Sequence record: ON528746
DNA: 64,000 nt
Direction: 5' to 3' (one strand)
DNA from: Shigella phage ESh36
The notes below the pieces were generated by a model that was not told the DNA's origin, ran no database searches, and saw only the letters and a program-made list of their open reading frames with translations. This document shows, piece after piece, positions 43,039 through 43,398 of this stretch (the first letter of the stretch is position 1; each line of letters opens with the position of its first letter). Both the position numbers and the translations under genes were made by a program.

Positions 43039-43398
43039 TCAATACGGTTTAGCATCAAATTTTCTTTCGATTTCAGGCGTAAAATATAATTCTTTACCAC
43101 GTTTGGAAAAGCGACCAATAATATGATAATTATTCTCATCAAACGTGATATTGCCAATATCCATAGCTTTCAACCAAATATCGATATTTCTGTCAAGCTT
43201 TATATCAAAATTCCAATACGGAGAATTATTACCAAAAATACTACAAGCGGATTCAGTGAAACAACTGCTATAAATTTTGTCTTTAGGAACTACTAATTGA
43301 TAGACGCCTTTAATAAACTGAGGACCCTGCCACTTTGGCTGTTTCGCGTCTTCTTCTAATAGAATAGGGTAATAATTAAAATTCATATTTTCCGCCAC
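43039..43398 (-). CDS. hypothetical protein inserted between frd and td
   Basis: 119 aa ORF ([28 protein letters not shown]...); overlaps frd 3' end by 23 nt; no recognisable motif. Confidence 0.5.

Follow-up and report, generated by a model that had tools for sequence, protein, structure and literature searches.

The DNA window under study comprises 64,000 nucleotides (nt) of Shigella phage ESh36 (record ON528746), all positions given below being those of this stretch, and our subject is ORF115, a small gene which lies in it between frd, encoding dihydrofolate reductase, and td, encoding thymidylate synthase. According to the listing of open reading frames (ORFs), every gene between 41 and 46 kb of the window is located on the minus strand and stands in the order of phage T4 (Table 1). 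In T4, an ATGA overlap of frd and td was described in the 1980s. The T4 genome record (NC_000866) places frd at 145109-145690 and the end of td at 145112, with this 4-nt overlap and nothing between the two genes. In the window, the frd end at 43376 and the td start at 42994 are separated by 381 base pairs (bp), which hold an ORF of 119 codons. An initial annotation of this DNA had reported the overlap in T4, a gap of about 380 bp at these positions and the ORF with its translation, and both the ORF listing and the T4 record agree with it.

The same annotation regarded the ORF as novel, and in this it was mistaken. The identical protein is already deposited at NCBI (URY11440.1 of phage ESh16), and the sequence matches PHROG 1928 with an E-value of 7e-36, residues 8-115 being aligned to profile positions 2-125 of 126. 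Judged by these matches, ORF115 is an already catalogued small phage gene, the Tequatrovirus copy of PHROG 1928. The explanation which we prefer for the locus, and which we consider somewhat more likely than not as a whole, takes ORF115 to be an ordinary small early gene at a junction that carries interchangeable inserts, namely ORF115, an unrelated ORF68, or nothing.

Coding status, gene model and the frd end

A first question is whether the ORF is a gene at all. Between four Tequatrovirus alleles (window, RB3, T2 and FelixPlatter), 8-17 synonymous differences stand against 0-4 non-synonymous differences per allele pair, and the ratio of non-synonymous to synonymous polymorphism (pN/pS) amounts to 0.00-0.05. 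Since this ratio comes together with the PHROG match, a chance ORF is ruled out and ORF115 is, by the pattern of substitutions, a real coding gene under strong purifying selection. The opposite view, in which the ORF is spurious and the non-coding spacer is open by chance, has a next to negligible probability in the face of the low pN/pS, of a protein conservation with shared motifs that extends across genera down to 26% identity, and of the confident AlphaFold models described below.

The longest mechanical ORF begins with a GTG at 43398. The most likely start, as judged from the comparison of alleles and homologues, is the ATG at 43386, which yields a protein of 115 amino acids (aa). The overlap of 23 nt with frd given in the initial annotation is thus correct for the mechanical ORF and not for the likely coding sequence (CDS), whose start is overlapped by the last 11 nt of frd. 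We take the CDS to begin at the ATG because this start is annotated in every database record (such as RB3_232 in RB3 and URY11440.1 in ESh16), because the N-termini of homologues in other genera align with this position, and because the FelixPlatter allele has one A fewer, so that the upstream GTG is no longer in frame there. On reading the window sequence, no Shine-Dalgarno motif was found before the GTG. The four codons between the two starts are probably not translated as part of ORF115.

A C-terminal extension of Frd in comparison to T4, also noted in the initial annotation, was found again by protein alignment: the window Frd has 205 aa and the T4 protein 193 aa, a difference of 12 aa. 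Residue K194 of the window Frd is also the last residue of T4 Frd, and the 11 residues that follow it have no T4 equivalent and are read into the start of ORF115. The alleles differ in a run of adenines, which is A5 in the window (43410-43414, TATAAAAATG) and A3 in T4, T2 and FelixPlatter (TATAAATGA). T4, T2, FelixPlatter and fHoEco02 read GTATATAAATGA and encode a Frd of 193 aa ending in VYK, whereas the window, RB3 and others read GTATATAAAAATGAAAT, with two extra A's and the TGA of the T4 position out of frame. Because the difference is one of 2 nt in the length of an A-run, the extension is to be understood as a consequence of the reading frame and not as an added domain.

An in-frame fusion of the two genes is predicted in one case. 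A 316-aa protein (WP_146639004.1), encoded on a 169-kb contig of a Salmonella enterica assembly, joins Frd(1-193) through NEITRGGN to ORF115. The A5 run and a shorter A-run ahead of the ATG together give rise to it, and it may be a homopolymer sequencing error. In the phage collection no in-frame Frd-ORF115 fusion was detected, the top matches all consisting of two pieces in different frames.

Table 1. Features of the frd-td region in the window (all on the minus strand).
Feature	Position	Strand	Basis or remark
Gene 32	45329-46237	-	ORF listing
Terminator-like hairpin GGGGACC...GGTCCCC with T-run, strong, just after gene 32	45288-45306	-	
Best promoter-like site of the region, TTTACA-17-TATTAT with upstream TG	45228-45256	-	follows the gene 32 hairpin
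frd.3, frd.2, frd.1	between gene 32 and 81-aa ORF	-	ORF listing
81-aa ORF	43993-44238	-	stop overlaps frd start; phrog_3183 match, E 4e-43
frd, dihydrofolate reductase, 205 aa	43376-43993	-	ORF listing; Pfam DHFR_1, E 2.8e-18
Segment absent from T4, 418 bp	42998-43415	-	TAAA microhomology leaves boundaries ambiguous by 4 nt
Last 12 codons of frd	43379-43414	-	left-junction alignment of six alleles; protein alignment
Left repeat copy, AAATGAAATAACAC on coding strand, within frd 3' end	43399-43412	-	
Longest mechanical ORF, 119 codons from GTG	43039-43398	-	ORF listing
Four additional codons GTG GCG GAA AAT, source of the 119-codon ORF	43387-43398	-	
ORF115, likely true CDS (115 aa and stop)	43039-43386	-	PHROG 1928 match, database start, pN/pS
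Sigma-70-like match TTGATT-17-TATTAT	43042-43014	-	consensus scan, at ORF115-td spacer
Spacer ORF115-td, 44 bp	42995-43038	-	no counterpart in T4
Right repeat copy, AAATGAAACAATAC on coding strand, includes td start codon	42983-42996	-	
td, thymidylate synthase, 286 aa, intronless	42134-42994	-	Thymidylat_synt, E 1e-94
nrdA.2, nrdA.1, nrdA	after td	-	ORF listing

Family and distribution

The distribution of ORF115 was followed in a pool of matching T4-like phage records that numbers 514-569, depending on the query. The 601-bp region at 42900-43500 is present whole in 348 of 569 matching records and is 100% identical between the window and the Shigella phages ESh16 and ESh34, both Tequatrovirus. 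By tblastn, 362 records carry the protein at 90% identity or more, among them T2, T6, RB3, RB5-7, RB18, RB27, RB32 and RB68, and 218 further records match at less than 60%. Within Tequatrovirus the identity of the protein is 94-100%. In approximately 360 T4-like records it is annotated as hypothetical protein; the gene is therefore an annotated one at this position in most relatives, although not in T4 itself. Known members of the family, namely RB3_232, bas40_0069, DTLRGSSY_CDS0247 of T2, a hypothetical protein of T6 (NC_054907) and URY11440.1, occupy the same frd-td position and differ in nothing material from ORF115; they are the same gene, and the family carries no assigned function.

All distant matches that were examined or listed adjoin or overlap frd, and those in Klebsiella phage records also td. 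Homologues with 26-47% identity occupy the slot between frd and td in at least ten other genera. In the majority of enterobacterial T4-like phages this slot holds members of the family. Eight such loci were fetched (two from Kanagawavirus and one each from Jiaodavirus, Marfavirus, Gelderlandvirus, Winklervirus, Kagamiyamavirus and Karamvirus), and all show the arrangement frd-A-(B)-td with overlapping genes. Two tandem ORFs are found in seven of them, A with 103-113 aa and B with 115-124 aa. By hhalign the two are paralogues (probability 99.4%, E 8e-22), and B likewise matches phrog_1928 (E 8e-36). The B type was also detected in Moonvirus, in Pectobacterium phage PM2 and, next to frd, in the Yersinia phages phiR1-RT, TG1 and fHe-Yen9-01. 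Tequatrovirus retains A, to which ORF115 belongs, alone of the pair, and elsewhere in the window no paralogue of ORF115 was found. The position between frd and td, which ORF115 shares, served as our own working criterion for the family and lies outside the PHROG definition. Three genes of similar size just upstream of frd, orf228 and orf229 of JS98 and gp249 of SP18, were considered as relocated members and turned out to be unrelated (hmmsearch E 0.12 or higher).

PHROG 1928 is a small family confined to T4-like phages. A HMMER scan of 1.84 billion representatives delivered 18 clusters, all but one consisting of proteins of approximately 100-116 aa, the odd one being probably a spurious 488-aa repeat protein. 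A word-indexed protein search retrieved 3 proteins with the single sequence and 31 with the alignment as query. In some records ORF115 carries the label 'putative dihydrofolate reductase', which we reject: ORF115 has no Pfam match, in contrast to the clear DHFR_1 match of the neighbouring frd. Two probable sources of the label are the overlap with frd and an artefact of clustering; the 90% protein cluster of ORF115 has a Frd sequence as representative and includes the 316-aa fusion.

Alleles of the junction and direction of change

With 501 nt of T4 frd/td as query, 514 records matched, and the shares of the different alleles were estimated from a sample drawn at even spacing from these. A shorter query, 60 nt that span the T4 junction, failed to separate the alleles, as two-piece matches overlapping in the repeat ranked top. 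Three insert sizes occur at the junction: 0, approximately 204 and approximately 417 bp. The largest insert is ORF115 and accounts for roughly 70% of the sampled records, the middle one is ORF68 (roughly 25%), and no insert is present in roughly 5%, comprising T4, its laboratory variants and FL12. Further empty junctions came from the 60-nt query (RB55, RB59, vB_EcoM_112, G28 and F1). Outside Tequatrovirus, the junction is likewise empty in RB69 (Mosigvirus) and SP18 (Gaprivervirus), where it reads as in T4, GT(A/G)TATAAATGAAA.

ORF68, as present in fHoEco02, encodes 68 aa, belongs to phrog_9550 and is unrelated to ORF115. It lies at positions 1446-1652 of the fHoEco02 locus (L012) and overlaps both neighbours, with its start at the frd stop (ATGA) and with its stop at the td start (TAATG). 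In JS98 (Dhakavirus, NC_010105), the 202-bp gap between frd and td holds an unannotated ORF68 (positions 4215-4416 of the locus L016). The ORF68 DNA of JS98 and fHoEco02 is 98.6% identical, whereas the flanking frd and td reach only 78-79%. Because of this discrepancy between insert and flanks, the comparison points to an insert of one gene that was recently transferred from one genus to another.

Variable regions of T4-type phages are known for small ORFs that are shuffled via promoter/stem-loop motifs, termed PeSLs (PMC2839356, PMC4122927). The frd-td junction resembles these regions in that small unassigned ORFs come and go or replace one another between conserved genes via short-repeat recombination. 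It differs in the repeats themselves, which here are 5-9 bp of start/stop context (AATGA, TAAATGAAA) and not a promoter with a stem-loop. No terminator-like stem-loop lies beside ORF115, the only one in 42000-45400 being that which follows gene 32. An interpretation of ORF115 as a PeSL-flanked mobile ORF was consequently rejected, its flanks being direct repeats of the td start of 9-14 nt.

The comparison with T4, T2 and other relatives, as proposed in the initial annotation, defined the boundaries of the segment as 416-418 bp between direct repeats. Window and T4 agree in the genes on either side, in the 3' end of frd as far as ...ESVYK and in the td start, ATGAAACAATACC; T4 differs by the absence of 416-418 bp with ORF115 and the 44-bp spacer. 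A perfect direct repeat of 9 bp, TAAATGAAA, brackets the segment in FelixPlatter-type alleles; its left copy contains the frd stop and its right copy the td start. T2 has the same repeat, with one base different just upstream. If the 416 bp between the two copies are taken out of the FelixPlatter-type allele, the T4 junction results base for base in the alignment of six alleles, and the 4-nt overlap of T4 would accordingly represent this allele minus 416 bp. In the window the repeat copies are identical at 12 of 14 positions, with a spacing of 416 (repeat search), and the step to the T4 junction needs a deletion of 418 bp with 4 bp of microhomology, compared with 206 bp and a microhomology of 5 bp if the ORF68 allele is the starting point. 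A 9-mer common to two 30-nt windows of such composition occurred in approximately 0.4% of simulations (chance of about 0.004), a value to be read with the caveat that TAAATGAAA is often met at gene starts, the window containing 10 copies of it.

A classic way for T4 to mutate is the deletion of DNA between short direct repeats. Because of this, and because the empty junctions within Tequatrovirus are confined to the T4 clade, our comparison leans slightly towards a loss of ORF115 in T4 rather than a gain in the other lineages. In the opposite reading, which we hold to be somewhat less likely, the ancestor of the coliphage genera had an empty junction and ORF115 was re-introduced by recombination. 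Several observations weigh against a loss in T4. RB69 and SP18 have the very same empty junction; the duplicated td start on the flanks might just as well have been left behind by an insertion; and ORF115 is closest to a Kanagawavirus A protein (43-47%), a grouping discordant with that of Frd, which is closest to the Winklervirus Frd (54.5%).

These observations also speak for the view of the initial annotation, in which an accessory gene was gained by this lineage inside a nucleotide-metabolism operon and serves in host takeover or anti-defence. The three alleles within Tequatrovirus, the evident exchange of ORF68 between genera and the fact that ORF115 is dispensable, T4 being without it, fit as well. 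As an explanation of the locus we consider this view rather unlikely: ORF115 is neither novel nor lineage-specific, being present in the majority of the sampled Tequatrovirus records and having syntenic homologues or paralogues in at least ten genera. Of the term 'accessory gene' this much can be kept, that the gene is real, polymorphic, dispensable and missing in T4.

The comparison has above all a corrective value. What appears as a novel insertion when T4 is used as reference is what T-even phages commonly have, T4 and likewise RB69 being the exceptions. The well-known frd/td overlap is a minority arrangement among the relatives of T4; it may be derived, and could be explained by a repeat-mediated deletion of 416 bp.

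Predicted fold, possible function and expression

Sequence searches gave no indication of a function, in line with the statement of the initial annotation that the ORF contains no recognisable motif. The Pfam scan of ORF115 was without match, and that of 32 family members delivered scattered chance matches (E 0.014 or higher) and no nuclease families. Searches of PDB sequences with the single sequence and with a profile resulted in chance matches only (E 0.23 or higher). In BFVD only uncharacterised proteins were retrieved, nearly all of phages, and the significant E-values all came from T4-like phages. Literature searches on the frd-td ORF, on phrog_1928 and on the locus tags returned nothing on function. 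The only experiment found deals with a homologue, g236 of phiR1-RT, which was not detected in virions and had no HHpred hit (PMC6893735). In the same study its relative number of colony-forming units was 0.401 against a cut-off of 0.4, and it was hence not called toxic in E. coli (PMC6893735).

AlphaFold2 models were built with a 32-sequence alignment. The model of A, that is ORF115, reached a predicted local distance difference test score (pLDDT) of 81.3 and a predicted template modelling score (pTM) of 0.77, and that of the B paralogue 89.7 and 0.80. Each of these two independent models displays a five-stranded beta-barrel whose only helix precedes the last three strands. As criterion for an OB-fold we used a closed five-stranded beta-barrel with a helix between strands 3 and 4 and a significant structural match; the structural neighbours of both models are OB-fold domains only (SSB, RPA, PriB, YgiW), and the matches are weak. 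The likeness to OB-fold domains that bind single-stranded DNA or act as adaptors (SSB, PriB, RPA14/RPA32, YgiW) lies in the length of approximately 100-120 aa, in the barrel with one helix and in conserved aromatic and basic residues. The differences are a sequence identity of 1-16%, with no relationship found at the sequence level, and the near-neutral isoelectric point (pI) of ORF115.

The invariant residues of the family (W19, G27, Y29, G91, R92, F93, K95 and G97) are aromatic, basic or glycine, and none of the invariants is acidic (Asp, Glu) or His. For this reason an enzyme or nuclease is disfavoured and a binding surface fits. On the basis of the models we tentatively propose, as our best guess although less likely than not, that ORF115 could be a non-enzymatic OB-like binding protein, its ligand being either single-stranded nucleic acid or a partner protein from the machinery for DNA precursors and replication. 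Against this proposal stand the pI of about 6.6, many nucleic-acid binders being typically basic, and the fact that T4, RB69 and SP18 manage without the gene. In addition, the T4-like gene order is broadly conserved whatever the function, and the position between frd and td is accordingly weak evidence for a link to thymidylate metabolism. A bolder version, which we regard as improbable, would see in the PHROG 1928 proteins, ancestrally an A/B pair, subunits of OB-fold type with gp32 or single-stranded nucleic acid as ligand, which would physically tie the Frd/Td arm of deoxynucleotide synthesis to replication and would have escaped notice for decades since T4 and RB69 lack them. If such an adaptor role were true, the 316-aa Frd-ORF115 fusion would be a gene-fusion hint of an interaction.

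A very different function is implied by the records of the BASEL phages, where the gene (bas40_0069) is named 'putative homing endonuclease', as in FelixPlatter, AugustSocin, AndreasVesalius and KarlGJung. A homing endonuclease of the freestanding kind, intact or as a remnant, would agree with presence and absence between two conserved genes, and the same operon elsewhere has I-TevI and mobE. Yet no Pfam match was obtained, GIY-YIG, HNH and LAGLIDADG included, and no match to a PDB sequence; neither a nuclease domain nor a catalytic motif of these types or of the PD-(D/E)XK type was recognised; with 115 aa the protein has about half the size of the Seg and Mob proteins of T4; acidic or histidine residues are missing among the invariants, and the predicted fold is an OB-like barrel. 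Moreover, the family has diverged deeply and in place across genera instead of spreading sporadically at high identity. Taken together, an endonuclease is very improbable.

PHROG 1928 is widespread, strongly constrained and uncharacterised, and it is missing from both main model phages. Because T4 and RB69 are without the gene, no T4 genetics bears on it, and a well-conserved family with a predicted OB-like fold has stayed unstudied since neither model phage has it. A reasonable, although not urgent, target for functional work would be the gene in T2 or T6.

Concerning expression, the strong hairpin behind gene 32 is followed by the best promoter-like site of the region, which is likely the start of a transcription unit from frd.3 through frd and ORF115 to td, as far as can be read from the sequence. 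ORF115 would then probably be transcribed from this site and, as the 11-nt overlap suggests, probably be translated by coupling to frd. A further sigma-70-like match lies at the ORF115-td spacer. Were it functional, phages with ORF115 would possess a separate td promoter that T4 lacks. All promoter-like matches have to be seen against the background of the region, where 24 were found and 15.2 +/- 4.1 expected, a number not clearly above chance. Beside the spacer site, the sequence TTAGCTTCA resembles, when read by eye, the MotA box of T4 middle promoters.

Some minor observations were made in the same region. An Rfam scan of 42000-45400 delivered a single sub-threshold match on the plus strand at 43284-43355 to Yar_1, a region of a Drosophila long non-coding RNA. 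Its score is 23.1 bits where the gathering score is 50 (E 0.065), and the match has almost certainly arisen by chance. The td genes of T4, RB3 and fHoEco02 contain a group I intron with I-TevI, and td of the window does not. ORF115 and the intron vary independently, RB3 having both, the window ORF115 only and T4 the intron only. In the identical record of ESh16 (positions 1-1171 of the locus L003, corresponding to the window above about 46240), gene 59, which encodes the helicase loader, is the immediate upstream neighbour of gene 32; the homing-endonuclease gene segG, which T4 has at this place, is missing. The 81-aa ORF upstream of frd is a second T4-specific absence within the operon that carries ORF115: it has no counterpart in T4, where the gap between frd.1 and frd is 71 bp, and it is also present in RB3 (RB3_234), ESh16, T2 and fHoEco02. 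SP18 gp248, annotated as 'similar to RB32ORF231c', is related to it.
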